A DNA stretch of 64,000 bases from an uncultured Verrucomicrobiota bacterium. Its GTDB lineage: Bacteria; Verrucomicrobiota; Verrucomicrobiia; Limisphaerales; J093. Numbering within the stretch: position 1 is the first letter of the stretch; every line of letters begins with the position of its first letter. The stretch lies in the NCBI GenBank assembly GCA_964535555.1, contig CAZHUS010000006.1:9458-73457 (forward strand). The letters are read 5' to 3'. The notes beneath the pieces were generated by a model. That model saw nothing but the letters and a program-made list of their open reading frames with translations. It did not search any database and had not been told where the DNA came from. Of the stretch, positions 7,412 through 36,909 are shown one piece after another. A program made the position numbers and the translations under genes.

Positions 7412-7449
7412 GGCTTTGAGAGGTGGTTGGTGGGAGCGGGGGTGTTGGA

Positions 7450-8598: not shown

Positions 8599-8624
8599 AC
8601 CGGATAGGGAGCGGAAACCACTCC

Positions 8625-9083: not shown

Positions 9084-9189
9084 GGGCCGAACTTAAGCGG
9101 CGTCCCCGCGAAAGACAAGCCCGCCCCGGAGGGCGGACCTGTCAGGCCGCTTCGTGAGATATCGTTCGCCACTGCCACCGGTGCCCAGG

Positions 9190-9795: not shown

Positions 9796-9850
9796 AACCT
9801 TGCGGGTTGGGAGTTGTCGGCGGCAGGCGGCGCCGGGGCACCGCGGCGGC

Positions 9851-10411: not shown

Positions 10412-10555
10412 AGGTGCTATCAGGTTCTGTCGCATTTCCGGTGCCGGCGCGGCCCCGGTGATCTCAGTACAGTCGGGCGGGGTGCCGGGTTTCAGAAAAC
10501 CCCCGGCCAAATTCCGCGGCTTGGACTTGGGAGGGCCAGCGGCTACGTTGGCGGC

Positions 10556-10930: not shown

Positions 10931-11010
10931 CCAGGGCGCTCCGTCCACCGGGTGGCGGATCGGAGCGCGTGTTGACACCCGGGGCGGTGCCTTTTCAAAT
11001 CAGGTGAGGT

Positions 11011-11505: not shown

Positions 11506-11515
11506 AGAGAGAACT

Positions 11516-11704
11516 ATGGGCGTTCCGAAACGAAAACCGTCGCACAGCCGACAGCGGCAGCGGCGGGCGTATAACAGTGTGCTGAAGCTCCCGCAGCTGG
11601 GCGTTTGCCCCCAGTGCGCGGCGCCGTACATCCCGCATCGCGCCTGTCCGGCTTGCGGATACTACAAAGGACGACAGGTCATCACGGTGAAAAGCGCCGG
11701 CTGA
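11516..11704 (+). CDS. rpmF: 50S ribosomal protein L32
   Basis: MGVPKRKPSHSRQRQRRA...CPQC...CPACGYYKGR is the classic L32 sequence. Confidence 0.95.
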   Translation: MGVPKRKPSHSRQRQRRAYNSVLKLPQLGVCPQCAAPYIPHRACPACGYYKGRQVITVKSAG

Positions 11705-11763
11705 ACCGAGTGTTCAGCCCCCAATGCACCGCGCGTGGGTGATCGCCCACGCGCCGGTTGCTT

Positions 11764-20840: not shown

Positions 20841-21647
20841 TCAGGGGAACCACGCCAGCACCCCGTCGCGTTGTTGCGGCCGGTCGGCCGCGAAATCCCA
20901 GTAAACGGTGTTGCGAAACCGCGCGGCGCGGCCATCCAGAAAAAGGAACTGGGCGCCACCCAGGTGGAGGTTGGTATGCACATAACTCCACGAACCGACG
21001 GCGGGCAGGTTTTTGGAGTCGAACAGCCACACCAACGAGGACGGCTGCGGCATCGCAGACAGGCGGACGGGTTGGTTGTCTTCCCCGGTGCCGTTGATGT
21101 TCTCGTTGAGGCAATAGTGAAAGAGGTTCCGGCCGTTGCTCCGGCGCGGGTTCGCGGCACAGAGCCACACTGATCGATGGGGACGGGCCATGGCGTTGGT
21201 CCGCCACGGCATGTCATGGTAGCGCGGGAGGCCCAGGACAGCGGGCAGCTGGATGTACCAACCGACGTTGGTGGCGCTGTCGGCCGGGTTGGGGGTTCCT
21301 TCCGGCGGGAGATAATCTCCGTGATCCGTGGCGTACAATTGGGTGGCGAGACCCCACTGACGGAGGTTATTCAGGCAGAGGACGCCGTGGGCACGAGCTT
21401 TCGCACGCGTGAGCCCGGGCAGGAGCAGGCTGGCGAGCACGGACATGACCGAGACCACCACGAGGAGCTCGAGCAAAGTGAAGCCTCGGCCCTGCGCGAA
21501 CGCTGTCCCTGTTGATCGTCGGGTCCGACCTCCGAGGGGCGCCCGGTCAGGTCTGGCGGGCAGATGGCTTGCCCGGGAGGGAGCGCCGAAACCGGACGGG
21601 ATTGGGCCTTGATGACGGTCGGAGTGTGGGGCGGCACGGGTTGGCAT
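20841..21647 (-). CDS. Prepilin-type N-terminal cleavage/methylation domain protein, DUF1559-like
   Basis: GRGFTLLELLVVVSVMSVLASLLLP motif. The C-terminus has a HxxxxxxxxxDG-like LHLGGAQFLFLDG. The only canonical in-frame start upstream of the motif is ATG 21647, which gives a 55-aa leader. Confidence 0.7.
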   Translation of the reverse strand: MPTRAAPHSDRHQGPIPSGFGAPSRASHLPARPDRAPLGGRTRRSTGTAFAQGRGFTLLELLVVVSVMSVLASLLLPGLTRAKARAHGVLCLNNLRQWGLATQLYATDHGDYLPPEGTPNPADSATNVGWYIQLPAVLGLPRYHDMPWRTNAMARPHRSVWLCAANPRRSNGRNLFHYCLNENINGTGEDNQPVRLSAMPQPSSLVWLFDSKNLPAVGSWSYVHTNLHLGGAQFLFLDGRAARFRNTVYWDFAADRPQQRDGVLAWFP

Positions 21648-21795
21648 CACCCGACACGTTGCGCTTCGGGCGCCGCGCGGCCAAGACCACTTCCAGGCAA
21701 AGCGCGGGAAGATCCGGCGGAGGTTTCGCCGACCCACCGGACGGGGTGCCTTGCGTCCCCAACTGGCGGAAGTACGCTGAGGACGGACCCGGAAT

Positions 21796-22944
21796 ATGAT
21801 GGATCTGAACCAACAGGAGAGGCTGCGGTACGCCCGGCATCTGCAACTCCCGGAAGTCGGCGTGGCCGGGCAGCAACGCCTGCGCGAGGCGCGGGTTCTG
21901 TGTGTGGGCGCGGGGGGGTTGGGGTCGCCGGTGGCGATGTACCTCGCGGCGGCCGGTGTCGGCCACCTGGGCATTGTGGATTTCGACGCGGTGGAGTTGT
22001 CGAACCTGCAGCGTCAGTTGCTCCACGGCACCAGCCGGCTGGGCCAACGGAAGACGGCTTCCGCGAGCACCACGCTTCGCGACCTGAATCCCGAAATCGA
22101 AGTGATCGACCACGAGCTGCGCCTCGACGCGGGCAACGCGATGGCACTGCTCGCCGGCTACGAACTGGTGGTGGACGGAACAGACAACTTTCCCACGCGC
22201 TACCTCGTCAATGACGCGTGCGTGCTCCTGCGAAAGCCGCTGGTGTACGGCTCGATCTTCCGCTGGGAAGGCCAGGCCAGTCTCTTTGCGCCCCACCTGG
22301 GAGGGCCATGCTATCGGTGTCTCTTCCCGGAGCCACCCGCGGCCGGGACCGTTCCCAACTGCGCCGAGGGCGGCGTTTTGGGGGTCCTGCCCGGCGTCAT
22401 CGGCTGCATTCAGGCGACGGAGGCCCTGAAGCTCCTGCTGGGCCAGGGCCGCTCGCTGCTGGGCCGGTTCCTCTTATTTGACGCCCTGGCGATGGAGTTC
22501 AGGGAACTTCGGTTGCGACGTGATCCGTCGTGCCCGATCTGTGGCGAGCGTCCCACCATTCAGCGACTCGAGCAGTCCGCGGGTGCGTGTGCCGCCAGCT
22601 CTCCTCCAGCTATGGGCGCGGACCCTCGCGAGGTGAGCGTTCATGAGATGAAACGCGCGCTGGACGAGCCCGGGTTGGGCATCACGGTGGTGGATGTACG
22701 GGAGCCGGAGGAGTGGGAGATGGCCCGCGTGCCGGGGGTGCAGTCGTTACCGCTGTCGAGGCTTGCCGAGCGTTGGACCGAGCTCGACCCGTCACGTCCC
22801 TACTACTTGCACTGCAAGGCGGGGGCCCGCTCGTTGCGGGCGGTTGAGTTCCTCGAACAACGGGGATTCCGGCAGGTCAAAAGCGTGCGGGGAGGCTTGA
22901 TGGACTGGGCGGCGACGATTGACCCGGAGATGCTGTTGTACTGA
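21796..22944 (+). CDS. moeB: ThiF/MoeB-type adenylyltransferase with C-terminal rhodanese domain (MoeZ-like)
   Basis: RYARHLQLPEVG, GAGGLGSP nucleotide loop, CYRCLFP...C..GGVLG, CPICG, then a rhodanese-like tail with YYLHCKAGARS. Confidence 0.85.
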   Translation: MMDLNQQERLRYARHLQLPEVGVAGQQRLREARVLCVGAGGLGSPVAMYLAAAGVGHLGIVDFDAVELSNLQRQLLHGTSRLGQRKTASASTTLRDLNPEIEVIDHELRLDAGNAMALLAGYELVVDGTDNFPTRYLVNDACVLLRKPLVYGSIFRWEGQASLFAPHLGGPCYRCLFPEPPAAGTVPNCAEGGVLGVLPGVIGCIQATEALKLLLGQGRSLLGRFLLFDALAMEFRELRLRRDPSCPICGERPTIQRLEQSAGACAASSPPAMGADPREVSVHEMKRALDEPGLGITVVDVREPEEWEMARVPGVQSLPLSRLAERWTELDPSRPYYLHCKAGARSLRAVEFLEQRGFRQVKSVRGGLMDWAATIDPEMLLY

Positions 22945-22996: not shown

Positions 22997-24112
22997 GTGG
23001 TCATTCGAGTTTTCATCCTGGAAGCGCATTCCATCACCCGAGCGGGACTGCGAGCTCACTTGGAGATAGCCTCGGATATCGATGTCAGTGGTGAGGCCTC
23101 TGACCTCCAGGTCGGCCTGAGGGTGGTGAACAACTCCAAGCCGGGTGTCGTGCTGGTCGGCGCCAGCCTCTACCGGCAGGAAGGGGATCAACTCATCCGG
23201 CGCCTGCTCGACATCACGCCCCAGCCGGCGGTGCTCATCCTTGCCGACCAGGAAGACGCATGGTCCGCCGAGCGCGCCCTTCGTGCCGGGGCGTTGGGGT
23301 ATGTCTCCAACCGCATTGAGGCCCCGGCCCTGGCGGCCGCCATCCGCCAGGTCTCCCGACAGCAAGTCGTGGTCAGCTCCGAGATCAAGGACGCCCTGCT
23401 GCGGCGCCTTACCGGGAGCACCTCCGCCACGCCCAAGGATCCCGCTCAACTCCTGTCCGAGCGCGAGATGGAGATCTTCGTTCTGACGGGGAAGGGGCTC
23501 GAGGCCAAGGAAATTGCCGCCCAGCTTTCCATCAGCCCGCGGACGGTGGACGTGCACCGGGCCAACATCCGGAACAAACTCGGCATCCAGGGTGCGCACG
23601 AGCTGATGCGCTACGCGATGCTCTGGGAGCAGCACCAGCAGGAACTCGAGCGCCTGCGCGCCTTTGGACGCAAGGCGAGTCCCTTGCTGCTGGTCGAAGA
23701 TGACGAGGTGGACATCCTGAGCGTGGACCGCGCGCTCCAGGAACTCGGGGCGGAAGCCAAGCTGGTCGTGGCCCGCACCGCCGAGGAGGCGCTCACGTAT
23801 TTGCGGAATCCAGGCAATACCCGGCCGGGATTGGTGCTCCTGGACATCAAGATGCCCGGCATGAACGGACGCGAGTTCCTGGTCGAGGTGCGCAAGGATC
23901 CGTCCCTGCGCAGTTTGCCCGTCGTGGTGTTGACCGCCTCCCAGCTGGACGAGGACAAGCTCGGCATGCACTCCCTCGGCATCACGGGTTACTTGACCAA
24001 GCCGTCGAATTCCGCGGAGTTCGTCCAACGCCTCGGCTTGCTGGCGCAGTACTGGGGTGTCAACGAACCGCCGCCCGCCCTTCCGCTCAAGGGCACGCCC
24101 GGGCGCGGTTGA
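22997..24112 (+). CDS. Atypical regulator: pseudo-receiver, LuxR-type HTH, canonical receiver
   Basis: The N-terminal NarL-like fold lacks the acidic pocket, phospho-Asp and Lys (FILEAH, VLVGASL, GYVSN). HTH is LSEREMEIFVL...AAQLSISPRTVDVHRANIRNKL. The C-terminal REC keeps VEDDE, LLDIKMPGMNG, VVVLTAS and LTKP. GTG start. Confidence 0.8.
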   Translation: MVIRVFILEAHSITRAGLRAHLEIASDIDVSGEASDLQVGLRVVNNSKPGVVLVGASLYRQEGDQLIRRLLDITPQPAVLILADQEDAWSAERALRAGALGYVSNRIEAPALAAAIRQVSRQQVVVSSEIKDALLRRLTGSTSATPKDPAQLLSEREMEIFVLTGKGLEAKEIAAQLSISPRTVDVHRANIRNKLGIQGAHELMRYAMLWEQHQQELERLRAFGRKASPLLLVEDDEVDILSVDRALQELGAEAKLVVARTAEEALTYLRNPGNTRPGLVLLDIKMPGMNGREFLVEVRKDPSLRSLPVVVLTASQLDEDKLGMHSLGITGYLTKPSNSAEFVQRLGLLAQYWGVNEPPPALPLKGTPGRG

Positions 24113-24206
24113 CGCGGATTCCAGACCTCGGCCCGGCGCAAGCACGCCCCTCCGGAGCGGACCGCGCCGCACCCGCCGACGGCGCCGGGGGGACGATCTC
24201 AGGGGT

Positions 24207-25469
24207 TCATCCCCCCGAGAGCAGCCGTTCCCAAAGCCGTTCGTTGGTCATCGCCCGCACCAGGAATTCCTCGCTCTCGACCTGGGGAGAGGTGCTGCTC
24301 GGACGCAGCGGAAAGCTGAGCGCAAGGCAGCTCCCTTCCGTGCCCTGGTTCAGGAAGTGAACGCGTCCACCGTGGTGGTAGACGATGAAGTAACAGGCCA
24401 TCAGGTTGAGTCCGAGGTCCACCGCCCGGTCGCTGCGTGCCACCAGCGGGTCGAGGACGGACAGCACGGCGTCCGGCGGCAGACCGGGGCCGCTTTGCCT
24501 GACCTGCACCTCGACCTCGCCCTCCCCGTTTCCTTCGCCGGGTTTCGACAAGGCCGCGATGCGGACCTCGGGGCTGGGAGGCGAGCTGTGAAGGGCGTCG
24601 CGCAGGAGCAGTTCGAAGAGCTTCGTGAACCGGGCTCCGTCGACGTGCAAGGTCGGGAGGTCGACCGGGACTTCGTTGGCGACCCGGACCCCGCGCTGCT
24701 CGAGTTCGGGCCCCAGCTTCTGCAGGGTATCCTCGAGAACCGCGCGTAGCTGCACTTCGGTGTCGAAGCGGAAGGGCAGACCCGACGACGGCGTGAGGTC
24801 GTCCAGCAGACCAAACACCGTTTTTACCTGGGTCTGAACGTGCCGGTGGAACTGCTGCCAGAAGTCCGGATTGCGCAGCTGTTCCATGTCGACGTTCTCC
24901 CGCTGCAACATCTCGGGCGCGAGATCCAGGAATTTGTGAACCGCGCCCAGGGTGTTGCGGAGGCGGTTACCCAACCCCGCGGCCAGCACGCCCAGGCTGA
25001 GGACCCGGTCGGCGATCAACATGCGGTGAAGACTCGAGAGCTTCTCGCGGAGGAGCAGGTCCCGCTCCATCTGGACGATGAAAAACTCGAGGCTGCGCTT
25101 GAGCGTCATCTCGAGTCCGCGCAGGTCCCAGGGTTTGGTGACGTATTTGTAGATCGCGCCCGCGTTGACGGCGGCGATGGCGGCGTCCAGGTCGGTGTAA
25201 GCGGTGGCGAGAATCCGGATGATGCGCGGTTGCAGGCGGCGGGAACGCTCGAGGAACTGCACCCCCTGTTCACCCGGCATCCGCTGGTCGCTCATCACCA
25301 CGCCGATTTCGTCCTGGCAGTCCTGGAGGATCTGGAACCCCTCGGCGGCATTCGGGGCGGTGTACACCCGGAACGTATTCGCGAAGGCCTTGGCGAAGTA
25401 CTTCAAGGACTTCTCCTCGTCATCCACGTAGAGAATCGCAAAACGCTTGTAGTCGTAGATTGAGTTCAT
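24207..25469 (-). CDS. Response regulator with degenerate histidine-kinase-like output domain
   Basis: REC domain (ILYVDDE, VVMSDQRMPG, KPWD). The C-terminal HATPase_c-like region has degraded boxes (no His in AAGLGNRLRNTLG, LLLRDAL instead of the N box, QSGPGLP instead of DxGxG). Its start overlaps the stop of the upstream kinase gene (ATGA). Confidence 0.75.
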   Translation of the reverse strand: MNSIYDYKRFAILYVDDEEKSLKYFAKAFANTFRVYTAPNAAEGFQILQDCQDEIGVVMSDQRMPGEQGVQFLERSRRLQPRIIRILATAYTDLDAAIAAVNAGAIYKYVTKPWDLRGLEMTLKRSLEFFIVQMERDLLLREKLSSLHRMLIADRVLSLGVLAAGLGNRLRNTLGAVHKFLDLAPEMLQRENVDMEQLRNPDFWQQFHRHVQTQVKTVFGLLDDLTPSSGLPFRFDTEVQLRAVLEDTLQKLGPELEQRGVRVANEVPVDLPTLHVDGARFTKLFELLLRDALHSSPPSPEVRIAALSKPGEGNGEGEVEVQVRQSGPGLPPDAVLSVLDPLVARSDRAVDLGLNLMACYFIVYHHGGRVHFLNQGTEGSCLALSFPLRPSSTSPQVESEEFLVRAMTNERLWERLLSGG

Positions 25470-28231
25470 GCAAAGGTTCCTATCAGGGCCTCGCGTGCGG
25501 GGAGATCGTGCGATACGTGCTCCTGGAACACCATGGTGAATTCACAGAATTCGCCTTCCTGGCTCCGCACACTGATGCTCGCGCCCACTTCGTTCAACAG
25601 CCGGTAGCAGATGCTCAAACCGAGCCCGGTGCCTTGCCCTACTTCCTTGGTTGTGAAGAAGGGGTCGAAGATGCGCGCCTGGAGCGGGGCCGGGATTCCC
25701 GGGCCGTTGTCGCGGACGCGGACGATCTTCAAGCCGGGCTCGCGCTCCTCGACGGTGAGGGTGATCCGCGGCGGCCGGGCCTCGTGGGGGTGGGTTCGCA
25801 GGGCGTCCAGGGAGTTCTGAAGCAGGTTGACAAACACCTGGATGAGCTTGCTGTGGATGGCGGGGACGGTGAAGCCCTCGGGCACCTCGTTCTCCACCGC
25901 CACCCGCTCCTTCCACTCCGCCGCCAGGAACCGGAGCGCCGCCTCGATGGCGCGTCGCAACGGGACTTCCTCGATTTCACCCCCCTGCGGATGCGTGAAG
26001 GTCCGCAGGTCCGTGATGATGCCCGCCACCCGCCGCAGACCCTCCTGCACGTCGCGCAGCGTCTCCTCGTAATCGAGTCGGGCCTCCGGCGGTAGGTCGT
26101 CCGCGGTCCGCTCCATCAGGCCCAGCGCCGTGAGGGCGAAGTTCAAGGGGTTGTTGATCTCGTGGATGATGCCCGCGCTCATGCGACCCAAGGACGCCAT
26201 CTTCTCGGCCTGGACCAGTTGGGACTCGGTTTCGCGGAGTTGGTCGAGCGTGGCTTGCAGACGCCGATTCCGGCGCGACAGCTCCAGCTGCATCTGATGA
26301 CTGGCGCTGAGGCTTTTCACCCGGGCGCGCAGTTCGGCCAGCGAGAACGGCTTCGCGAGGAAATCGTTGGCCCCTGCCTCGAGCGCTCTCAGCTTCGTGA
26401 TGTCATCGGCACGCGCCGTCAGCATGAGCAGCGGGAGCGCGCGGGTCGCCGTCTGTGCCCGCAGCTCCCGGCAGACCGCGAGCCCGTCCTTCTCGGGCAG
26501 CATGAGATCGCAGACGATCACGTCGGGCAGGTACTGGGATGCGAGCGTGATGGCTTGGTCCCCGTCGCCGGCCTCCACGACTTCGTAGTCGCGGCTCAGC
26601 TCCGCTCTCAAGAACCGCACCATGTCGGGTTCATCGTCCACGACGAGCACCCGGGGGCGCTGACCGCGGCTGGGGGTGGCCGGGGGTGACCACACGGTGT
26701 CGCGCAGGGGCGTCACGCTCGCGAACCGCTCGGCCCGACGGTAGAGGTCACTTAACCAACCGGCGTTGACACCGGTCTCGGTGTCCGCCTGCGGCAGAGT
26801 CGGCGGGGGTGGAGCGCTGGCCGCAGGCACCAGGTCGGGCGATTCGGGCTGGAGTGCGGAGGCCTCGGCGACTTTCAGAGGCAGGCGCACGATCATGGTC
26901 GTTCCTTTCCCCAGTTCGCTGATCGCCTGAACCGAACCGCCGTGCGCCACGACGAGTTCCTTCACCAGCGCCAGGCCGAGGCCGACACCCTGGTACTTGC
27001 GCTGACTGGACGAGTCGGCCTGCCAGAAGCGGCTGAACAAGTAGGGCAGGTGCTCCGAGGCGATGCCGACCCCCGAGTCGATCACTTCAAAACGGGCCAT
27101 GTCGTCCTCCGCGCGCGCCGTGAGGCGGATGCTGCCGCCCGCGGCGGTGAACTTGATGGCGTTGAAGAGCAGGTTGAGGAAGACCTTCTCGAGTTTGTCG
27201 GCGTCGACGGACACCGTGCTCAAGGCCGGATCGACTTCGCACGACACCTGCAGACCGCGTTCTTCGGCCAGGCTGCGCACCGCGTTGAGGAGCCCCCGCA
27301 GAAACGTGTTCACCTGGACCGTCGACAGCTGCAGTCGCATCTGGCCGGCGTCCAGGCGGACCAGGTCCAGCAGGTCGTTGATCAGCTTGAGCAGGCGCAT
27401 CCCGTTGTCCCGCATCGTTTCGAGCGACTGGCGCAATTGCGGTTCGGACACGCCGCCTTGCGGTTGCAGCAACGCCTCCAACGGCCCGAGCAGGAGCGTC
27501 AGGGGCGTGCGAAGCTCATGGCTGATGTTGGCGAAGAAGCGCCCCTTGAGCTCATCGAGTTCTCGCAGCCGTTCGTAGCTGGTCTCGAGTTCCTTCTGGC
27601 TCCGCCGCAGCGCGAGGTTCGAGGCGAAATCCCGGAAGCGCAGCTTGTATTGAAGATCGCTGCCCACGGTCATGATGATGCCCGTGAGCACCATGAACCA
27701 CAGATTGCTGAAATAGGTGCCGCCATCGCCACCCGCCTGGCCGAGGCTGGCCGCAACATACAGGCCGATGAGGAGCAGGCAGGCCACCATGCTTTGGCGC
27801 CACGTCCATTGCGCCACCAGTGCCATGGCCAGCAGGATCAGGTTGAGCCCCGCGTAATAAGGCCACGCCGGGCCTTCCCGGAAGATGATCCAGCTCATGG
27901 CGAGGCCCGGAATCACTGCCAGCACGATGCCCAGTTCCCGGTAATAACGGATCCCGGTCCCGCTGCGGAACAAATGCAGCACCGGGAGGATCAGCAGCGA
28001 GCAAACCACCCGCACCCCGAAGTATTGTCCGAGGTTTTCCTCGTAAAGCAGGAAGTCCACGATCGATCCCAGCGGCAGGAGGACCATGATCAGGTAACAG
28101 CCCACCACCAGGCGTTGGCTGCCCTGCTTCCGCTCATGCTCCGCGAAGGCCGCCAGCATCTCGGGGTCCGCGGCCGATTGGGAGAGGCCCCAGTCGCGCT
28201 GCGGATTCAGAGGGTCAGAAGGAGATTCCAT
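25466..28231 (-). CDS. Multi-pass membrane hybrid histidine kinase with two transmitter modules (TM, HisKA/HATPase, REC, HisKA/HATPase)
   Basis: About 6 hydrophobic helices. First H box FFANISHELRTPL with GVGLGLALV. REC has VLVVDDEP and CDLMLPEKDG. Second H box SAGIIHEINNPLN with DNGPGIP and GTGLGLSI. Confidence 0.85.
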   Translation of the reverse strand: MESPSDPLNPQRDWGLSQSAADPEMLAAFAEHERKQGSQRLVVGCYLIMVLLPLGSIVDFLLYEENLGQYFGVRVVCSLLILPVLHLFRSGTGIRYYRELGIVLAVIPGLAMSWIIFREGPAWPYYAGLNLILLAMALVAQWTWRQSMVACLLLIGLYVAASLGQAGGDGGTYFSNLWFMVLTGIIMTVGSDLQYKLRFRDFASNLALRRSQKELETSYERLRELDELKGRFFANISHELRTPLTLLLGPLEALLQPQGGVSEPQLRQSLETMRDNGMRLLKLINDLLDLVRLDAGQMRLQLSTVQVNTFLRGLLNAVRSLAEERGLQVSCEVDPALSTVSVDADKLEKVFLNLLFNAIKFTAAGGSIRLTARAEDDMARFEVIDSGVGIASEHLPYLFSRFWQADSSSQRKYQGVGLGLALVKELVVAHGGSVQAISELGKGTTMIVRLPLKVAEASALQPESPDLVPAASAPPPPTLPQADTETGVNAGWLSDLYRRAERFASVTPLRDTVWSPPATPSRGQRPRVLVVDDEPDMVRFLRAELSRDYEVVEAGDGDQAITLASQYLPDVIVCDLMLPEKDGLAVCRELRAQTATRALPLLMLTARADDITKLRALEAGANDFLAKPFSLAELRARVKSLSASHQMQLELSRRNRRLQATLDQLRETESQLVQAEKMASLGRMSAGIIHEINNPLNFALTALGLMERTADDLPPEARLDYEETLRDVQEGLRRVAGIITDLRTFTHPQGGEIEEVPLRRAIEAALRFLAAEWKERVAVENEVPEGFTVPAIHSKLIQVFVNLLQNSLDALRTHPHEARPPRITLTVEEREPGLKIVRVRDNGPGIPAPLQARIFDPFFTTKEVGQGTGLGLSICYRLLNEVGASISVRSQEGEFCEFTMVFQEHVSHDLPAREALIGTFA

Positions 28232-28235
28232 GGCT

Positions 28236-29684
28236 TCAGCTCGCCGTCGGTTTCCGGACCTCCAGGAACAGATTCACACCGGTGGAATCAGCCTCGATGC
28301 GCCATTGCGGAGGCGGTTTTCCGGTGGGCACCAGACGCTTCATTTCCTCCGGGCTGCGACAGATGAGATGCCACTCGAGGATATAATCCATGGAATGGCG
28401 GAAGGGTTTCGCGGCGTCCACGTTCGTCACAATGACGACCCCGCCGGGGGCGAGCCAGGTGTAGAACAGCTCGGTCAACCTCTTGCACACGCGGTCGGAC
28501 ACGTAATCAAAAAGTCCCGCGCAATACACCAGGTCGTATCCCGCCCCATTGAGCGGCGCCTCCGGGCGCAACGACTCCTTCAGCAGTTGATTGACAGATT
28601 TCTCGGAGAAATCCAGCACCGCGCGACGTCCGTGCTGCCCTTGAATCTGCCGGAGGCATTGGGAGGCGAACTCGAGTGTCTCCCCGTTGAAGTCGAGCAG
28701 GCTGAGGTCGACCTGGTTCGAAAGGGTGTCCTCGGCCAGGAACAACTGGACCTCGCGGGCGGGCCCGCAGCCCAGGTTCAGGATTCGGGCCCGCCGGCCC
28801 AGTTGGGCGACACGCTGCGTTTCCTCGCGCAACCGGCGCCAGAGGTATTGAATCCGGTTCCGGTGGGCCTCGGCCGGGGGGTTCCGCAGGAAGACGACGT
28901 TCACCATTTTCGCGAACAACGTCGCGCCTTCGTGCGGATCCCGCAGGATCATGTTCACCATCTCATAGTCGCCCGCGTAGCCCAGCGGTTTATGATAGGT
29001 GCGGTACACGAAGGGCGAGCACATTACCAGGGGATGGATCTGCCGGCGCGCATAGGCCCGGTACGCCGGACGCAGGCCGTCTTCAATGCTCTCGGCCGCG
29101 GTGTCGAAACGTCCTGCCCATTCGTCGATCTCCGGCAGAATATGTCCTTCGAGCTCGGTCAGGACCTGACGTTCCATGTCCCGTCGGACGCCGGTGGGCT
29201 CGGAGCGTACGCCGAGTTCGACCTGATCCAACCAGCGCCGCACCTCCGAGAGCAGCATCTGGAAATCGGCCACCGCCACCTTGAACGCGTCGCTGATTCC
29301 CTGCATCTTCCGCCACTGACCCATGAAGGACTCGAACTCGCCCCGGAGGCGATCCGGTTGCGAGATGGGCGAGAAGATGTCGACATCCAGCCAGGACTCG
29401 TCGTCGAGGGTCACCTCGGCGAGCACCAGGATGCCGGCGTTCACGAGGTTGCTGACGACCGCCCGGCCGGCATAGACGCACCGGTCACCGATCGTGATGT
29501 GAAAATCCCCGAGGACTTCGGAAAGCTGGAGGATGCTGTGAGGGTTGTAGACCTCGAGGACCGCCGTGTACCGCGTTACCCGGACGGGCGTCGAGCGAAC
29601 CTCTCCTCCCTGGCTGTTGCGGCAGGTGATGAGGATATCGCGATTCTCGAACAGGGCGGAACCGATGGTTGCGTGCTGAGACAT
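28236..29684 (-). CDS. Class I SAM-dependent methyltransferase with large N-terminal domain, PhcB-like
   Basis: SAM motif I RILNLGCGPAREV and post-I/II elements (YDLVYCAGLFDY, LAPGGVVIVTN). About 300 aa lie N-terminal to it. Start trimmed to ATG 29684. 4-nt spacer to the downstream kinase gene. Confidence 0.7.
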   Translation of the reverse strand: MSQHATIGSALFENRDILITCRNSQGGEVRSTPVRVTRYTAVLEVYNPHSILQLSEVLGDFHITIGDRCVYAGRAVVSNLVNAGILVLAEVTLDDESWLDVDIFSPISQPDRLRGEFESFMGQWRKMQGISDAFKVAVADFQMLLSEVRRWLDQVELGVRSEPTGVRRDMERQVLTELEGHILPEIDEWAGRFDTAAESIEDGLRPAYRAYARRQIHPLVMCSPFVYRTYHKPLGYAGDYEMVNMILRDPHEGATLFAKMVNVVFLRNPPAEAHRNRIQYLWRRLREETQRVAQLGRRARILNLGCGPAREVQLFLAEDTLSNQVDLSLLDFNGETLEFASQCLRQIQGQHGRRAVLDFSEKSVNQLLKESLRPEAPLNGAGYDLVYCAGLFDYVSDRVCKRLTELFYTWLAPGGVVIVTNVDAAKPFRHSMDYILEWHLICRSPEEMKRLVPTGKPPPQWRIEADSTGVNLFLEVRKPTAS

Positions 29685-29914
29685 GCGTGGGCCGGCAACG
29701 CTGCGGTGCCTCAGAAGACCACCGACGGCACGTCGGGTGCAATACGTTTGTCGAGTACCGCGGCTAACGATCTTGCGTACGCACCTCCGCGGCCCCGGCG
29801 TCCTTCGCCTCGCCCCGGGCTGTGTTTGGTGTTGCGCCCTGCCGTGCGGGAGCGCGATTCTCGGGTTCAGGATCATGCCTCCCTCAGCACCCGTTCCAGA
29901 TTGAGTTCACGCTC

Positions 29915-31528
29915 ATGCCGGTCAGCCAAGCTCTAATGCGTGAAGCAGCGACGCCCGACGTCGTCCGGTCGCCGGACCCTCTGGCCCCGCGCCGGCCTCC
30001 GCCCTGGCCGGCCTTGCTTCACCTCGGAGATCGACTGGACAGCTTCCACGACTTCATTGTTCTGGTGGGTGCCCAGGGGCATCTCCTGTTCGCCAACCGA
30101 AGCTGGTGCCGCGCCGTCGGCTACGATCCTGCCGAGATCGGGGGCCTCCATTGTCACGACGTCTCCCCGCCCGAGCAGTGGAGTCTCTGGGATCGTTGCC
30201 TGGATCCAAACCACCCGCCGGGAGAGATCGGCTCGATACCCCTTTCGTGGCGCACCAAGTCAGGCCATATCCTCCCGGCCGAGGGCAGTCTCCATGTCTG
30301 TCCGGAGAACGGCTCCCCCGTCCGGTTGCTCGGCATCTTTCAGGATCTGTCTCAACTGGCGGGCGCCCAGGCGGCCCTGCGGGAGTCGGAAGCGGCTTAC
30401 CACGTCATCGAGACCCGGGCACCGGTCGGCATCTTCCAAACCGACATGCACGGCCGACTGGTCCGGACCAACAAGCGCTGGCGCCTGATTGCCAACCTGG
30501 ACCACGTGACCGAGCCCCGCGGTGTGTGGTGGCAAATGGTCGAACCCGGCGAGCGTGAACGCGTTCTGGCTGAATGGCGGTCCGCCCAGCGCCATCGACG
30601 GGAGTACCGCGGCGAGTTTCGAGTGAACGCCGGGGCCGACGTCGAGCGCTATGCCCGGACGATCCTGGTCCAGAGCTACGCCAAAGACGGCTTGCCGGGC
30701 TCCTGCATCGGCGTTTCCGAGGACGTGACCGAACAGCGTCGATTCGAAACGCAATTGCGGGACGCCCAGGAACAACTCGAGCGCCGTGTCCGGATCCGTA
30801 CCTCCCAGCTTGAGGCCGCCAACCGTGAACTGGCCCAGTTCGCCCACGTCGTCGCCCACGATCTCAAGGCTCCCCTCCGCGGCGTCAACAACGTCGCCGA
30901 GTGGCTCTCGCGGGATTACGAAGAGGTGCTGGACCCGAATGGCAAACGCCTGCTGAGCCTGATCCGGCAGCGCGTCCAGCACATGCACGACCTGATCGAG
31001 GGCATCCTGGCCTACACGCGCTTCGGTCAGGTTGCCGAAGCCGAAATCCACGTGGATCTCCAGGAACTGGTGACGCACGTGCTGAGCATCCTCGCGCCCT
31101 CGCCCGGAATCCTTTTCCGCATACCTCCTTCCCTGCCCACGGTACGGGGAGTGCCTGAGCGGTTGCGGCACATTTTCCAGAACCTCTTCGACAACGCCAT
31201 CAAGTTCATGGACAAGCCCCAGGGCCTGGTGACCCTGTCGGTGAAGCGTCTCCCCCAAGCCTGGGAGTTCGCCGTCCGCGACAATGGATCCGGCATTCCC
31301 GAGCGCTATCACCACCGGGTTTTCAAGATGTTCGAGCAGTTGCCGGGGCGGCGCAAAACCAGCGGAACGGGCATTGGCCTGGCGCTGGTCAAGCGCATCG
31401 TGGAGGCGCGGGGGGGTGAGGTCCGGCTGGACTCGACCGAGGGGGAAGGGGCGACGTTTACTTTTACCTGGCCGGATCTGGCGGTGAGCGAGGAAGGACA
31501 TCCGCTCGGATCGGACCCGGAGATTTAG
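29915..31528 (+). CDS. PAS-domain sensor histidine kinase
   Basis: Two PAS-like segments, H box FAHVVAHDLKAPLRG, N box NLFDNAIKF, and DNGSGIP / GTGIGLALV. Divergent from the methyltransferase operon. Confidence 0.85.
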   Translation: MPVSQALMREAATPDVVRSPDPLAPRRPPPWPALLHLGDRLDSFHDFIVLVGAQGHLLFANRSWCRAVGYDPAEIGGLHCHDVSPPEQWSLWDRCLDPNHPPGEIGSIPLSWRTKSGHILPAEGSLHVCPENGSPVRLLGIFQDLSQLAGAQAALRESEAAYHVIETRAPVGIFQTDMHGRLVRTNKRWRLIANLDHVTEPRGVWWQMVEPGERERVLAEWRSAQRHRREYRGEFRVNAGADVERYARTILVQSYAKDGLPGSCIGVSEDVTEQRRFETQLRDAQEQLERRVRIRTSQLEAANRELAQFAHVVAHDLKAPLRGVNNVAEWLSRDYEEVLDPNGKRLLSLIRQRVQHMHDLIEGILAYTRFGQVAEAEIHVDLQELVTHVLSILAPSPGILFRIPPSLPTVRGVPERLRHIFQNLFDNAIKFMDKPQGLVTLSVKRLPQAWEFAVRDNGSGIPERYHHRVFKMFEQLPGRRKTSGTGIGLALVKRIVEARGGEVRLDSTEGEGATFTFTWPDLAVSEEGHPLGSDPEI

Positions 31529-31597: not shown

Positions 31598-31640
31598 TGT
31601 ACATACAATGTACAGACATTGCATGGTCGTTTGATGTACA
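31598..31640. promoter_or_regulatory. Three TGTACA palindromes, candidate toxin-antitoxin operator
   Basis: TGTACA at 31598-31603, 31609-31614 and 31635-31640. TTGTACAT (31597) and ATGTACAA (31634) are reverse complements. They lie directly upstream of, and overlap, the possible brnT starts. Confidence 0.35.
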
Positions 31641-31651
31641 ATCCGGGGCGT

Positions 31652-31936
31652 ATGGAGTTCGATTGGACCAATCCGCCGTTTGAAATGGCGGCACTGACGA
31701 CGCGGGACATCGAAGAGTCTTTCGAAGACCCGTTCGCCGTCCGGTTGCTCCCGGACTCGCCGCGCTTTTCGGTTCAGGCGCGGTTCTTTAATCTCGGCCG
31801 TTCGGCGGGGGGTCAGGGAGTCCTGAGCCTTTACCGGGCGAACGGGAAAACGCTTCGGGTCATTTTCGCGCGTCCGTTCACGCCGGAGGAAGAGTTCTTC
31901 CATCAGCGCAAAGTGAACCAGATGTTGGCGCAGTAA
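31652..31936 (+). CDS. brnT: BrnT-like (DUF497) toxin
   Basis: MEFDW start and RVIFARPFTPEEEFFHQRK tail fit the BrnT pattern. The in-frame TTG 31619 and ATG 31634 are alternative starts. Confidence 0.6.
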   Translation: MEFDWTNPPFEMAALTTRDIEESFEDPFAVRLLPDSPRFSVQARFFNLGRSAGGQGVLSLYRANGKTLRVIFARPFTPEEEFFHQRKVNQMLAQ

Positions 31937-31986: not shown

Positions 31987-32262
31987 ATGAATGTCCTCAC
32001 CAGTTGGGACGAGGTGCCGCTGTTTGACAACGAGGAAGCCGAGGCGGCTTACTGGGCGGACTGCCGGGTGGATTTGCGGCTCATGGAAGCCGCGGTGGTG
32101 GCGGGTTCGGAAACGAGCGAGTCGGTGACGATTACGCTTCGCATGGACCCGCGGATGTTGGCGAAGATAAAGCGCTTGGCGCGCTCCCGGTATTTGAATT
32201 ACCAGAGCATGATCAAGCAGTGGCTGAGTGAGCGAATGGAACAGGAAGCACGGGACCGGTAG
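31987..32262 (+). CDS. brnA: BrnA-like antitoxin (CopG/RHH-type C-terminus)
   Basis: 91 aa. VTITLRMDPRMLAKIKRLARSRYLNYQSMIKQWLSERM matches the BrnA-type C-terminal pattern. Located 50 nt downstream of brnT. Confidence 0.6.
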   Translation: MNVLTSWDEVPLFDNEEAEAAYWADCRVDLRLMEAAVVAGSETSESVTITLRMDPRMLAKIKRLARSRYLNYQSMIKQWLSERMEQEARDR

Positions 32263-32295: not shown

Positions 32296-33048
32296 ATGAA
32301 CTTGCACGAGCACACACGGCCGGGGTTCGCGTGGCACCGCTCACGCGCCCGCGCCCGACTCAGGGCATTCACCCTCATCGAACTGCTCACGGTCATCTCT
32401 ATCATCGCCCTGCTGGCAACCATCGGTGCCGCCCTGTCCGGCGTCGCGATCCGAAAGGCCCGGGAATCACGGATCCGGGCGGAGCAGGGGAAGCTGGTGA
32501 CGGGCATCGAGCATTACAAGGCCGAGTTGGGCCAATACCCGCCTGACAACTCGCGGAACGGGGTCAACCGGGATCCGGCCATCCACCCGCTTTACTATGA
32601 GCTCTTGGGGACCGTTTCGAGTGATCAAGGCCGTCTCTACCGCGACCCGGACACCACCGAGCAGGTAACGGCGGCCGCCATCGGCAACGCCTTCGGCGGG
32701 GCTGGCGGCTTCGTGAATTCCGTCGTGGCCCCGGCCAAGCCACGGAGTTTTCTGAAGGGACTCGACCAGCGGCAGCACCGGCGGGTTCGCCTCAGCTCGG
32801 GCGCGGAAATCGAGCTGCTGACGGTTTCGGGTCAGGACTGGCCCACGAAGAACAGCGTGCAGACCGGCCAGGCTCCGCTGGCCGGCAGGGTCGCGGACGC
32901 CAAGTTGCTGAGCGTCAACCCGTGGCATTACGTGGCGACGCGCCCCACCAACAACCCGGGTTCGTTTGATCTCTGGGCCCTGCTTCCGTCCGGCAGGGTG
33001 GTCAACGGCACCAACGAGTACCGCATCCTCGGGAACTGGAAGGAATGA
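32296..33048 (+). CDS. GspG-like major pseudopilin paralog 1 (250 aa)
   Basis: RAFTLIELLTVISIIALLATIGAAL prepilin motif, then ...RAEQGKLVTGIEHYKAELGQYPPDN in a GspG-like arrangement. Confidence 0.75.
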   Translation: MNLHEHTRPGFAWHRSRARARLRAFTLIELLTVISIIALLATIGAALSGVAIRKARESRIRAEQGKLVTGIEHYKAELGQYPPDNSRNGVNRDPAIHPLYYELLGTVSSDQGRLYRDPDTTEQVTAAAIGNAFGGAGGFVNSVVAPAKPRSFLKGLDQRQHRRVRLSSGAEIELLTVSGQDWPTKNSVQTGQAPLAGRVADAKLLSVNPWHYVATRPTNNPGSFDLWALLPSGRVVNGTNEYRILGNWKE

Positions 33049-33082
33049 TCTCTCCCCACCATCCGACGCCACTTCTGTGACC

Positions 33083-33928
33083 ATGAAACTACGTCCTCTC
33101 AACCCTGCCAGGAGCCATCGCGGCTTCACGCTGATCGAACTGTTGACCGTGATCGCCATTATTGGCGTGCTGGCCGGCATGATCCTCCCGGCACTCTCGG
33201 GGGCCAAGGCCAAGGCCAAGGTCGCGCTGGCCCGGAACGACATCACCATCCTCCTGGGCGCCATCAATGACTACCATGCCACCTACAACCGGATGCCCGC
33301 GTCCCAACGGACTCGGAACAGCATCACGGACCGGTGTCCTGATTTCACGTTCGGTACGGCTCAGCGTTCCGGCAACTCCGCCAGCCCGACCCTCACCGGC
33401 GGACGTGGCGAGTCGCTCGTCCCCATCGGCAACACCGGGAACGCGGGCAACTGGCAAGCCAACAACTCTGAACTGGTCGCGATCCTCTCCGCGCGTGATC
33501 GCATGGACGATCAGACCGTGACGGTCAACCGGGACCATAATCTCAACCCCCAAAAGAAGAACTTCCTCGACGGGATCAAGCAGAAGAGCTTCGTGAAAGC
33601 CGGGGTCCCCGGGGTCGGCGGGATCACCCCGGACCTCGTCATGCGGGACCCGTGGGGACGGCCCTATCTCGTTACCATTGACCTGAATTTCGATGGCAAG
33701 TGCCGCGACGCGCTGTACCGCATGCAGGCCGTCTCCCAGCAGACGGGGGACAGCGGTCTCAACGGCACGTCGCGCGGGGCGCCGGTGGGACCGGATGATG
33801 TCGGGGGAGACCGGTTCGAGGTTCGCGCCACCGCGATTGCGTGGTCCCTGGGACCCGACGGGGCGGCAACCGCCGATCAAAAGGCGAACTTCGGCGTGAA
33901 TAAAGACAACATCCTGAGCTGGAAGTAA
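33083..33928 (+). CDS. GspG-like major pseudopilin paralog 2 (281 aa)
   Basis: MKLRPLNPARSHRGFTLIELLTVIAIIGVLAGMILPALSGAKAKAK...DITILLGAINDYHATYNRMP. Start trimmed to ATG 33083. Confidence 0.75.
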   Translation: MKLRPLNPARSHRGFTLIELLTVIAIIGVLAGMILPALSGAKAKAKVALARNDITILLGAINDYHATYNRMPASQRTRNSITDRCPDFTFGTAQRSGNSASPTLTGGRGESLVPIGNTGNAGNWQANNSELVAILSARDRMDDQTVTVNRDHNLNPQKKNFLDGIKQKSFVKAGVPGVGGITPDLVMRDPWGRPYLVTIDLNFDGKCRDALYRMQAVSQQTGDSGLNGTSRGAPVGPDDVGGDRFEVRATAIAWSLGPDGAATADQKANFGVNKDNILSWK

Positions 33929-33938
33929 GCCGGGCCTT

Positions 33939-34883
33939 GTGTTCATGAAGGCGAGACCCAACAACATGCTGAAAGCGCGCGTGTCGCCGAATCCGGGAGG
34001 GGCACGTCGCGGGGCGGGGGTCCGCTTGAACGGTTCCGGCGTCCAGCCTGAGAGCAGCCAGGCCCGTCCGGGCGGCGGGTTCACGTTGCTGGAAATGCTG
34101 GTGGTGGTCGCGATTGTCGGTCTGCTCGCCGCGGCCAGCCTGCCGGCCATCCGGGCGTTGACCCAGACGAACACGGTGGCCGCGGGGCATCGTCAGTTCC
34201 TGGACGATTTGGCCTTGGCCCGCCACCAGGCCATCAGTGGCCGGCGCATCGTGTATCTGGTTCTGGTGCCGCCCACGATGCGAACGCACTTCAACACGAT
34301 CCGGAATGCCGACGTGCGGCTCTACCCGGCCGCCGTCAAGGATGCTTCGCTGCGCCAGTTGACCAACCTCGTCAACGGCCAATTCACGGCGTACGCCTTG
34401 TTCACCCGGCGCTCCGTGGGGGACCAACCCGGTCGTGAACGGCCGCGCTACTTGAGCGATTGGAACCAACTGCCGGACGGCATGCTCTTTGGAACGAATG
34501 TCTTCGAGGATCTCGGGGCGGCGTGGTTCAATGTGGCCGGTCTCACCAACCGGGTCAGCCGTCCGCTTCCCTTCGGGTGGTTTCCGTTTCCACTCGCCGA
34601 CAGCCCCGAGATGCGCCTGCCCTACATCGCCTTCGATTCGACGGGGCGCATGTTCTACGACGGCGGCGTGGTGCCCGCCCGCCCGGGCGAGTCGGTTCCG
34701 CTCCTGCGCGGGAGTGTCTTTTACGAGAAGGACGCCGAGCAGCGTTATCGCCTGGGCATGCCTCCCGATGTGGTCATCACGGAACAATCGCGGACGAATC
34801 AAATGGTGGTGCGCGTGGAGTGGCTCACCGGCCGCGCGAGAGTCATCAGGCCGTGGGAACAAACCGTCGCGTGGCAACAATGA
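33939..34883 (+). CDS. GspH/FimT-like minor pseudopilin (up to 314 aa)
   Basis: GGGFTLLEMLVVVAIVGLLAAASLPAI then HRQFLDDLALARHQAISGRR, a GspH-like pattern. Start is ambiguous (GTG 33939, ATG 33945, ATG 33966, or an in-frame TTG 18 codons before the motif). Confidence 0.65.
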   Translation: MFMKARPNNMLKARVSPNPGGARRGAGVRLNGSGVQPESSQARPGGGFTLLEMLVVVAIVGLLAAASLPAIRALTQTNTVAAGHRQFLDDLALARHQAISGRRIVYLVLVPPTMRTHFNTIRNADVRLYPAAVKDASLRQLTNLVNGQFTAYALFTRRSVGDQPGRERPRYLSDWNQLPDGMLFGTNVFEDLGAAWFNVAGLTNRVSRPLPFGWFPFPLADSPEMRLPYIAFDSTGRMFYDGGVVPARPGESVPLLRGSVFYEKDAEQRYRLGMPPDVVITEQSRTNQMVVRVEWLTGRARVIRPWEQTVAWQQ

Positions 34884-35770: not shown

Positions 35771-36909
35771 ACGCTCCCCGCTTCAGCTGCCCCTGCGCTT
35801 TCGGCGCTATCCAGGAACTGCCAGCAGGTAGGGCGGGCACTCCGTTGCCCGCCGAGACCGGCGCTCAAGGGATGGGGCGCCCTGCGCAGAACTGCCGACT
35901 TCAGTCGGCAGGAACCCGCGCCGGCCGGGGCACGTCCCAGCGGGCCAGAGCCCGCCTCCAGGCCTTCACCCTGCTCGAGGTCCTCGTCGCCGTGGGGATC
36001 ATGGGCATCATCGTGGCGGCCCTGTACACCGTCTTCAACCACACCCAACGAGCGCTCCGCGCCAACGCCAACCAGACGGATGTGATGGAAGGCGGACGCT
36101 TCGCCATGGCGCTGCTGACGACCGACCTCCGTTCGCTCACCGCGGCCGGTCTGGCTCCCGAAACCAATTTCATCTCGTCATTGAGCCCCGCCGTGGGCAT
36201 CCCAATGCTCAGTGCCCTCGGGAACGATCTCTACCGGCGATATTACACCACCAATGCTCCCGGTAGCTGGAGCGGGTACCTGCCCGTGATCCAGAGACTG
36301 AACACGGGAACCGAATGGCGGACCAATAGGCTGGAAGAGTTCTTCCTCCACACCCGAACAGGGGCGCGCTCGGCCGGCGTGGTTTACCGGGTCATTGATG
36401 CTCAGGGCGGCGTGGGGACGCTGGCCCGCTTCTCCTTCGAACACACGAACCGGTTCGTGTTGCCCGGGACGCTCTCCCGGGCATGCCTGATGCAGCCCGC
36501 CGCGAATTTCGCCCAGGTGCTGGATGGCGTGGTGCACTTCCGCGTCCAGGCCTACGATCCCCTCGGGTATCCAATGTCGTGGTGGAATAGCGCCTGGTAC
36601 AACACCTCCACCAACGGGTATGGGCTCCACGGTTATCGGCTCGGTTTCGATCTGGTGCTCGACCCGGATCCACGTCTGGTGAGCACCACCCTTGCCATGT
36701 TCCGCAGCAACGCCCTGCCAGCCGCCATCGAGATCGAAATCGGAGTGCTCGAACCCGAGTCGCTCGCGCAGTTTAGAGCCTTGCCCGACGGCTCGCCCTT
36801 CGCCGAACGGTTTCTGTCGAATCGCGCGGCCCAGGTCCAACTCTTCCGCCAGCGCATCCCCATCTGGCAGGCGCCTCCCCTCCAGTCCGCTCAGTCTCTC
36901 CGGCCATGA
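35767..36909 (+). CDS. GspJ/PulJ-like minor pseudopilin (up to 380 aa)
   Basis: QAFTLLEVLVAVGIMGIIVAALYTVF...GGRFAMALLTTDLRS. ATG 35767 forms an ATGA overlap. The only other canonical in-frame start is ATG 35872. Confidence 0.6.
   Translation: MNAPRFSCPCAFGAIQELPAGRAGTPLPAETGAQGMGRPAQNCRLQSAGTRAGRGTSQRARARLQAFTLLEVLVAVGIMGIIVAALYTVFNHTQRALRANANQTDVMEGGRFAMALLTTDLRSLTAAGLAPETNFISSLSPAVGIPMLSALGNDLYRRYYTTNAPGSWSGYLPVIQRLNTGTEWRTNRLEEFFLHTRTGARSAGVVYRVIDAQGGVGTLARFSFEHTNRFVLPGTLSRACLMQPAANFAQVLDGVVHFRVQAYDPLGYPMSWWNSAWYNTSTNGYGLHGYRLGFDLVLDPDPRLVSTTLAMFRSNALPAAIEIEIGVLEPESLAQFRALPDGSPFAERFLSNRAAQVQLFRQRIPIWQAPPLQSAQSLRP
35815..35857 (+). repeat. GC-rich hairpin repeat, copy 1
   Basis: GAACTGCCAGCAGGTAGGGCGGGCACTCCGTTGCCCGCCGA, with the internal stem GGCGGGCA / TGCCCGCC. 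Near-identical to 36936-36978. Confidence 0.8.

Follow-up and report, generated by a model that had tools for sequence, protein, structure and literature searches.

A three-gene cassette homologous to phcB-phcS-phcR, with an elaborate hybrid sensor kinase, in a Verrucomicrobiota genome

Herein, a three-gene cassette is described within a 64,000-nt stretch of contig CAZHUS010000006.1 (assembly GCA_964535555.1), referred to below as the window, from a host of the Verrucomicrobiota (Limisphaerales, J093). The cassette encodes a methyltransferase, a hybrid sensor kinase and a response regulator. Judged by sequence homology, it is a genuine relative of phcB-phcS-phcR, the core of a signalling system known as a speciality of Ralstonia and Cupriavidus. 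It is not a strict member of the four-gene operon of the Burkholderiales, because the kinase architecture differs and PhcQ is absent. We consider it fairly probable that the cassette is a phc-type autoinducer module in a long form, in which a chain leads from a methylated signal to the regulator as proposed below.

The three genes lie in the same direction on the minus strand and are tightly packed in the list of open reading frames (ORFs). Lengths are given in amino acids (aa).

28236..29684, minus strand: PhcB-family S-adenosylmethionine (SAM)-dependent methyltransferase, 482 aa, putative autoinducer synthase (BLASTP, hhalign, names from the Joint Genome Institute (JGI) pipeline, AlphaFold2 (AF2)).
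25466..28231, minus strand: hybrid sensor kinase, 921 aa, with a PhcS-type membrane sensor, a first histidine-kinase core (HK1), a receiver (REC) and a second core (HK2) (Pfam, hhalign, catalytic residues).
24207..25469, minus strand: PhcR/PhcQ-type response regulator, 420 aa, with a receiver, a degenerate kinase-like domain and a tail (hhalign, JGI names).

The junctions read in the sequence exactly as the earlier note on this DNA had described them. The methyltransferase stop codon TGA occupies 28236-28238, the kinase ATG begins at 28231, and the 4-nt spacer 'agcc' (28232-28235) lies between them. The kinase stop and the regulator start share an ATGA overlap at 25466-25469. The short spacer and the overlap indicate that the three genes are co-transcribed. 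A promoter and terminator scan of 23800-30200 found none, but no information can be drawn from such a scan in this phylum. The maximal ORF of the methyltransferase spans 28236-29876 (546 aa); the ATG at 29684, which gives 482 aa, is favoured because homologues are mostly 477-485 aa long and are aligned from about residue 1-15. Opposite the three genes, plus-strand ORFs at 28230-29936, 26942-28366 and 24840-25463 look 'conserved' in related loci. They were rejected as conserved genes and are regarded as shadows of the real genes in a genome of 65% GC.

For comparison with the Burkholderiales, a full-length homologue from Paraburkholderia graminis was found by tblastn of plasmid records. That protein was used as the query and returned 80 Burkholderiales loci, including Cupriavidus necator, and a later genome scan supplied loci of several Ralstonia species. 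The reference phc loci were those of Ralstonia chuxiongensis (L211), Cupriavidus necator (L138) and L152, and all hhalign comparisons used profiles from alignments of 31-78 orthologues per protein. The ORFs in the Burkholderiales loci encode PhcB of 463-470 aa, PhcS of 442-453 aa, PhcR of 368-377 aa and PhcQ of 333-335 aa, in agreement with the published phc operon (PMC8578825, PMC10653808). PhcB is the established synthase of methyl 3-hydroxymyristate or 3-hydroxypalmitate, and PhcS is the sensor of this signal (PMC8578825, PMC10653808). When Ralstonia PhcB, PhcS, PhcR and PhcQ were searched back against the window by tblastn, their best matches were these same three genes. Together with the BLASTP and hhalign results given below, homology holds in both directions, and the likeness in gene order and domain logic that had been suggested for the cassette is confirmed: synthase, kinase and regulator follow one another, each homologous to its phc part. 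One reference record deserves a remark of its own. The phc proteins of L152 (CP158803.1, labelled Ralstonia pickettii RAL3, 7001-11884) are ~94% identical to those of the Cupriavidus loci, and their lengths are not those seen in the other Ralstonia species (L211-L218). Mislabelling of the record or transfer of the locus may account for this.

The methyltransferase can be aligned with PhcB from end to end. Over ~460 residues it shares 38.7-39.6% identity with the Ralstonia and Cupriavidus PhcB proteins (BLASTP, E about 1e-114), and the full-length profiles match with a probability of 100 and an E-value of 2e-121 (hhalign). The two N-terminal halves match at E 2.5e-63 and the two C-terminal halves at E 8.6e-74. 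Homologues carry the JGI pipeline label 'extracellular factor 3-hydroxypalmitic acid methyl ester biosynthesis protein'. Among 95 diverse family members the invariant columns are KPxGxxGD (K232, P233, G235, G238, D239), R277, GxGPxxE (G307, E311), D331, D393, N421, R443 and N471, and the same residues hold in the alignment with a Burkholderiales PhcB. The first gene had been put forward as the counterpart of PhcB, and these comparisons bear this out.

Pfam detects the methyltransferase by weak class I matches below the cut-off (Methyltransf_12, Methyltransf_23 and Methyltransf_25) at residues 283-440, the ~280 residues upstream are covered by no Pfam model, and NCBIfam gives no match. An AF2 model was built from the 95-sequence alignment. 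It has a pLDDT of 91.9 and a pTM of 0.89, and it is divided into a beta-barrel, a helical bundle and a Rossmann domain.

29406..29636, minus strand: residues 17-93, N-terminal beta-barrel of PilZ-like fold (AF2 models, Foldseek).
28800..29357, minus strand: residues 110-295, helical bundle or cap with the family-invariant KPLGYAGDYEMVN and HRNR motifs (AF2, 95-member alignment).
28254..28790, minus strand: residues 299-477, class I Rossmann domain with the SAM motif LNLGCGPAxE and the acidic D331 (Pfam, alignment, Foldseek).

This layout of ~280 aa followed by a Rossmann domain agrees with the initial description of a 482-aa class I SAM methyltransferase with a large N-terminal domain. The barrel modelled alone reached a pLDDT of 84.4, and its top 16 Foldseek matches in the PDB are all PilZ-domain proteins, at TMq 0.49-0.62 and weak E-values of 5e-3 to 6e-2. 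The canonical motifs for binding of cyclic di-GMP (RxxxR, D/NxSxxG) were not seen on reading the barrel sequence, and Pfam at E up to 10 gave no meaningful family, and no PilZ match, for the barrel and helical bundle. The helical and Rossmann parts have 3OCJ and small-molecule O-, C- and N-methyltransferases as their nearest Foldseek neighbours, at 10-21% identity. No match was obtained in a profile search of PDB sequences with the methyltransferase family; no solved structure matches it by sequence. The helical cap and Rossmann fold are shared with 3OCJ (an uncharacterised Bordetella parapertussis protein), MfnG, SibL and DsyB (Foldseek E 8e-11 to 2e-8); these proteins, however, are only 13-19% identical to the window enzyme and lack both the N-terminal PilZ-like barrel and the two-component gene context. 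Identity as a cyclopropane-fatty-acid (CFA) synthase or a polyketide C-methyltransferase, an unrelated grouping that had been raised at the outset, was rejected: Pfam and NCBIfam give no match to CMAS or polyketide synthase families. Foldseek does list such enzymes as fold neighbours at 10-13% identity; CurJ, the citrinin CMeT domain and the CFA synthase of E. coli rank among many generic class I methyltransferases, at 11-13%.

The kinase is more elaborate than PhcS. Pfam recognises two HisKA and two HATPase_c domains, with one receiver between the two cores, and the following parts were delimited.

27587..28189, minus strand: residues 15-215, polytopic sensor domain with 5-6 transmembrane (TM) segments, homologous to PhcS (hhalign, hydropathy peaks 41-166).
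26867..27559, minus strand: residues 225-455, HK1, classical HisKA core of the 'SHELRTPL' type, H238 (conserved boxes in 57 orthologues).
26312..26659, minus strand: residues 525-640, internal receiver, D532/D533, phospho-acceptor D575 (Pfam Response_reg, E 5.6e-27).
25517..26236, minus strand: residues 666-905, HK2, 'IIHEINNPL' type, H690, equivalent of the PhcS core (hhalign, BLASTP).

The membrane domain (residues 1-215) matches the PhcS membrane domain with a probability of 99.9 and an E-value of 2e-36 over 201 columns (hhalign), and the motifs G..LD..YP and SPYYAGLNL are common to both; Pfam at E up to 10 gave no meaningful family for this sensor. HK2 matches the PhcS kinase core strongly (score 435, E 8e-67), whereas HK1 matches the same core weakly (score 189). 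By BLASTP, residues 44-451 are 22-29% identical to whole PhcS, and residues 646-914 are 36-38% identical to its kinase half. From the hhalign scores it is concluded that PhcS corresponds to the membrane sensor plus HK2, with HK1 and the internal receiver as an additional internal module. The H, N, G1 and G2 boxes of HK1, the H box and catalytic boxes of HK2, and the pocket of the internal receiver (DDEPD, D575, LTAR, KPF) are all conserved in 57 kinase orthologues, and because of this conservation both cores and the internal receiver look functional. The gene had been described as a polytopic sensor kinase. The PhcS-type membrane sensor supports that description, but it has to be extended to a hybrid protein of 921 aa with two complete cores and an internal receiver.

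BLASTP also aligns residues 525-905 of the kinase with PhcR, and a fusion of PhcS with PhcR was considered and rejected. The internal receiver reaches a score of 97 against the PhcR receiver, compared with 240 for the separate regulator, and HK2 scores 435 against the PhcS core and 195 against the PhcR core (hhalign). With a score of 56 against the PhcQ receiver as well, the internal receiver is of a generic and distant type.

The third gene combines Response_reg and HATPase_c domains in Pfam. It matches PhcR over its full length (hhalign, 360 columns, E 8e-50; BLASTP, 25-26% identity over the whole length). Its receiver is about equally close to the receivers of PhcR (score 240) and PhcQ (score 248; E 2e-44 by hhalign, 37-45% identity by BLASTP), and its homologues are labelled 'probable response regulator PhcQ' by JGI. 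The C-terminal domains of PhcQ and PhcR match each other at E 5e-24 (hhalign). This makes the former a diverged relative of the latter, and the single regulator is therefore most readily understood as corresponding to PhcR and PhcQ together.

25086..25445, minus strand: residues 9-128, receiver, D16/D17, D61, T89 and K112 (conserved with PhcR).
24285..25022, minus strand: residues 150-395, histidine-kinase-like domain, predicted to be catalytically dead (degenerate boxes).
24210..24278, minus strand: residues 398-420, conserved tail EEFLVRAMTNERLWERLL, absent from PhcR (alignment).

The receiver motif YVDDE...TDxRMPG...TAY...KP is common to the regulator and PhcR. In the kinase-like domain, the position aligned with H151 of PhcR is N168 (24966-24968), and the closest relatives have no histidine there or at the next position. 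Across the regulator family this position is H in 31/52 orthologues and otherwise Q, N, R, S or G, and the loss of the H-box histidine seems specific to this sub-lineage. The asparagine of the N box is replaced (RDA here, mostly RDE, KDE or RHE across the family), G1 reads QSGPG here compared with the family consensus DNGPG, and G2 is degenerate or lost. The domain is predicted from these boxes to be catalytically dead in this genome. The tail EEFLVRAMTNERLWERLL is near-invariant in Verrucomicrobiota orthologues, and Pfam at E up to 10 gave no meaningful family for it; as a guess, it may be a partner-docking helix. The proposal of a response regulator with a kinase-like output stands as far as the receiver, the kinase-like fold and the homology to PhcR are concerned, but the kinase boxes are degenerate here.

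Set beside the phc system of Ralstonia and Cupriavidus, the cassette has the same gene order of synthase, sensor kinase and receiver protein. Its kinase contains a membrane sensor and an HK2 core homologous to PhcS, and in its regulator a receiver of the PhcR/PhcQ type is joined to a kinase-like C-terminal domain, with no domain for DNA binding. The two systems differ, however, in several respects. In the window kinase of 921 aa, a classical HK1 and a receiver lie as extra parts between sensor and core, whereas PhcS of 442-453 aa has one core. There is one regulator gene here and two (PhcR, PhcQ) in Ralstonia and Cupriavidus. The window regulator has lost the histidine, the N-box asparagine and G2 and has gained a conserved tail, whereas PhcR keeps all kinase boxes. 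The host belongs to the Verrucomicrobiota. No PhcQ gene follows the regulator, the next gene being a convergent LuxR-type regulator, and no gene of the PhcX/LqsR type was recognised beside the cassette, although it was not specifically searched for. On the Paraburkholderia graminis plasmid pPHS1_P (CUJ91_RS33675-33690), a PhcB-family methyltransferase with 38% identity to the window enzyme is likewise followed by a kinase and receivers. That plasmid-borne locus differs from the window cassette in having the short form of the Burkholderiales: its kinase has 445 aa, and of its two regulators one is a receiver-only protein of 134 aa.

Conservation of the gene order was surveyed by a scan of one genome per species with the methyltransferase, which gave 184 relatives, and the best 80 of these (L001-L080) were kept. 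They are mostly metagenome-assembled genomes (MAGs) of Verrucomicrobiota (Pedosphaerales, Limisphaerales and similar). Pelagicoccus, Opitutaceae and bins labelled Deltaproteobacteria or Binatia are represented as well. Every long-enough locus of the best 80 has the methyltransferase, then a full-length homologue of the 921-aa kinase, then a homologue of the 420-aa regulator. The same order is kept in the long-enough distant loci L162-L241. The conserved unit in the best 80 loci is exactly these three genes, and the flanking genes vary. This arrangement is more than chance, and the three-gene synteny, whose loss would have spoken against a phc-like cassette, is found in all long-enough related loci.

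The family extends far beyond these relatives. An exhaustive profile-free search with the methyltransferase gave 653 clusters at 50% identity (E <= 1e-30), and a genome scan with the family alignment found the methyltransferase family in at least 600 species genomes. Among the matches listed are Planctomycetota, Verrucomicrobiota, Polyangiaceae, Burkholderiales, the Gammaproteobacteria Thiotrichaceae, Ectothiorhodospiraceae, Pseudomonadales and Salinisphaerales, and the Alphaproteobacteria Hyphomicrobium and Filomicrobium. When cluster members were looked up for the taxonomy of distant representatives, most proved to be metagenome proteins without a name. The gene after the methyltransferase was classified with hidden Markov models built in this analysis. 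In almost all non-Burkholderiales loci it is a long kinase (TM-HK1-REC-HK2, ~850-900 aa), followed by a PhcR/PhcQ-type receiver protein; this long form is present in Verrucomicrobiota, Planctomycetota and Gamma-, Alpha- and Deltaproteobacteria. The short PhcS-PhcR-PhcQ form is found in the Burkholderiales (Ralstonia, Cupriavidus, Paraburkholderia, Hydrogenophaga, Polaromonas, Telluria and others), with one exception, L208, a MAG labelled merely 'Pseudomonadota'. Two further non-Burkholderiales loci, L209 (8403-9692, a bin labelled Rickettsiaceae) and L220 (6117-7541, a Pirellulaceae bin), have a short TM-HK2 kinase without HK1 and REC, and the HK1-REC module may have been lost more than once. 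Tandem pairs of PhcR/PhcQ-type receiver proteins occur in some long-form loci (L187, L183, L188, L206, L230). This indicates that duplication of the regulator is not confined to the Burkholderiales.

A neighbour-joining tree of 229 methyltransferases, midpoint-rooted and without support values, was calculated. The short-form loci fall together in a single clade that contains no long-form member, and the sister group consists of gammaproteobacterial long-form loci. Next outward, in this order, are alphaproteobacterial loci, a Verrucomicrobiota clade that includes the window, and a mixed group of Planctomycetota and Verrucomicrobiota. This branching roughly tracks organismal relationships and points to the long form as the ancestral state, from which the studied short form would be derived; it is an indication, not proof. 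On comparison, PhcS looks like the long kinase minus HK1-REC, and the PhcR/PhcQ pair looks as if it had arisen by duplication of one regulator. The broader view, in which the long module is ancestral across phyla, methylated-lipid signals are widespread and the Ralstonia/Cupriavidus system is a trimmed Burkholderiales derivative, is held only tentatively, with the balance of our judgement somewhat against it.

The genes beside the cassette vary among relatives, and two of them may be connected with it.

22997..24112, plus strand: regulator of the REC-LuxR-type helix-turn-helix-REC layout, an unusual one, convergent neighbour (Pfam).
29822..31528, plus strand: PAS-PAS histidine kinase, cytoplasmic (no membrane segment noted), divergent neighbour (Pfam).

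The REC-LuxR-REC regulator adjoins the cassette in just 4/80 loci, the closest ones (L001, L002, L005, L006), and lies outside the conserved core; it may be a candidate downstream transcription factor in this sub-lineage only. A homologue of the PAS-PAS kinase stands upstream of the methyltransferase in 15 of the 80 loci, also outside the conserved core, and is possibly an extra input. Further observations concern other parts of the window. Two small adjacent plus-strand ORFs, 31619-31936 and 31987-32262, may be a toxin-antitoxin pair; the second matches a CopG-type antitoxin family, and the first has no Pfam match. Several genes carry a prepilin-type N-terminal methylation motif (20841-21974, minus strand; 32296-34883, plus strand), one with a weak DUF1559 match, and such genes are typical of Planctomycetes-Verrucomicrobia-Chlamydiae (PVC) genomes. 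Two very large plus-strand ORFs, 36906-40976 and 40991-49408, encode 1356 and 2805 aa with a coding-like GC content at third codon positions. The genes plsX and fabH of fatty-acid and phospholipid synthesis lie at 11758-13829 on the plus strand, ~14 kb from the cassette, and their proximity is probably incidental.

For the product chemistry, export, sensing, direction of phosphotransfer and output, we infer the following chain. By analogy with PhcB, the methyltransferase would O-methylate a small lipophilic carboxylic acid with SAM, most likely a (3-hydroxy) fatty acid drawn from fatty-acid metabolism, and a diffusible methyl ester would result. The sensor of the ester would be the polytopic, PhcS-type membrane domain of the kinase, and ligand binding would control HK1 (H238). 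Phosphate would pass from HK1 to D575 of the internal receiver, which would gate HK2 (H690), the equivalent of the PhcS core. HK2 would then phosphorylate the PhcR/PhcQ-type regulator at D61. We propose to pair HK2 with this regulator because the two are the counterparts of PhcS and of PhcR/PhcQ (hhalign scores 435 vs 189 for the cores and 240-248 vs 56-97 for the receivers). The regulator would act on a downstream factor through protein contacts, possibly by its C-terminal tail, since it has no DNA-binding domain and its kinase-like domain is predicted to be dead. A possible candidate for that factor in this sub-lineage is the neighbouring REC-LuxR-REC regulator.

Several points weigh against this chain. 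Identity of 39% to PhcB does not fix the substrate of the methyltransferase, and the work of Kai and Hikichi reportedly found that the chain length of the Ralstonia signal differs between PhcB proteins that are much closer to each other. Nothing in the studied phc system corresponds to the extra HK1-REC module, and the long-form members are so far known from their sequences alone. The window regulator lacks the H-box histidine kept by most orthologues, and its mode of action may differ within the family. No LysR domain of the PhcA kind was found in the ten LysR-sized window ORFs scanned, and no output was recognised. Even in Ralstonia, phosphotransfer from PhcS to PhcR and PhcQ is without biochemical (in vitro) demonstration (PMC8578825).

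The main rival explanation is a private homeostatic circuit without cell-to-cell signalling, in which the methyltransferase product is a cell-bound lipid or metabolite and the kinase monitors this compound or the state of the membrane. The window kinase, with two cores and an internal receiver, is more complex than PhcS, the cassette is linked to no exporter, no PhcA and no other known output of quorum sensing, and the identity of the product is not readable from 39% identity. However, in several phyla the synthase keeps the PhcS-type sensor as its partner although the genes around them change, as expected for a signal-receptor pair, and the sole characterised members of the family make a secreted, diffusible signal (PMC8578825). 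We therefore regard a private circuit as rather unlikely, though it deserves more weight than any other alternative. A CheR-like protein methyltransferase that modifies the kinase or the regulator for adaptation appears very improbable. The enzyme is always encoded with a two-component pair, one weak plasmid match is annotated CheR, and the PilZ-like barrel could have a regulatory role by binding a protein or a ligand; but Pfam and NCBIfam give no CheR match, the fold neighbours are small-molecule O-, C- and N-methyltransferases, and PhcB, which is 39% identical and has its two domains laid out in the same way, is assigned the synthesis of a fatty-acid methyl ester signal (PMC8578825). The idea that an unrelated methyltransferase stands by chance beside generic two-component genes, and that the phc resemblance is superficial, has a negligible probability. 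It could draw on the sub-threshold generic matches in Pfam and the lack of any in NCBIfam, but it is refuted by the full-length homology to PhcB (E about 1e-114), the homology of the sensor domain to PhcS (E 2e-36), the best matches of the Ralstonia phc proteins to these three window genes, and the strict synteny. A long-form phc-type autoinducer module is accordingly the reading we prefer among these.

To our knowledge, almost no signalling systems have been characterised in PVC bacteria. A survey of Proteobacteria (2023) found the distribution of the phc cluster to be restricted, in Betaproteobacteria (PMC10653808). No paper was found on phc genes in Verrucomicrobia or other non-proteobacterial phyla. 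The JGI names of the homologues show that automated KEGG-style orthology already links the methyltransferase and the regulator to phc. The earlier note saw here a cassette in a very distant lineage. The Verrucomicrobiota host indeed carries the module, but it is not an isolated case, since the family is widespread. The family is much wider than the Betaproteobacteria, and outside the Burkholderiales its sensor kinase is more elaborate. Cultured carriers among the related loci are Pelagicoccus sp. SDUM812002 (L067) and Roseimaritima sediminicola JC651 (L198).

This single locus is of less interest than what it stands for, a widespread long form of phc-type signalling among PVC bacteria and other bacteria of the environment. 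Quorum sensing of this chemical class would exist in PVC bacteria if the methyltransferase makes a diffusible methyl ester. If the long form is indeed ancestral, soil and freshwater members of the Verrucomicrobiota, Planctomycetota and Proteobacteria would commonly communicate by fatty-acid methyl esters or related methylated lipids, and such signals could be shared, or could interfere, across phyla.

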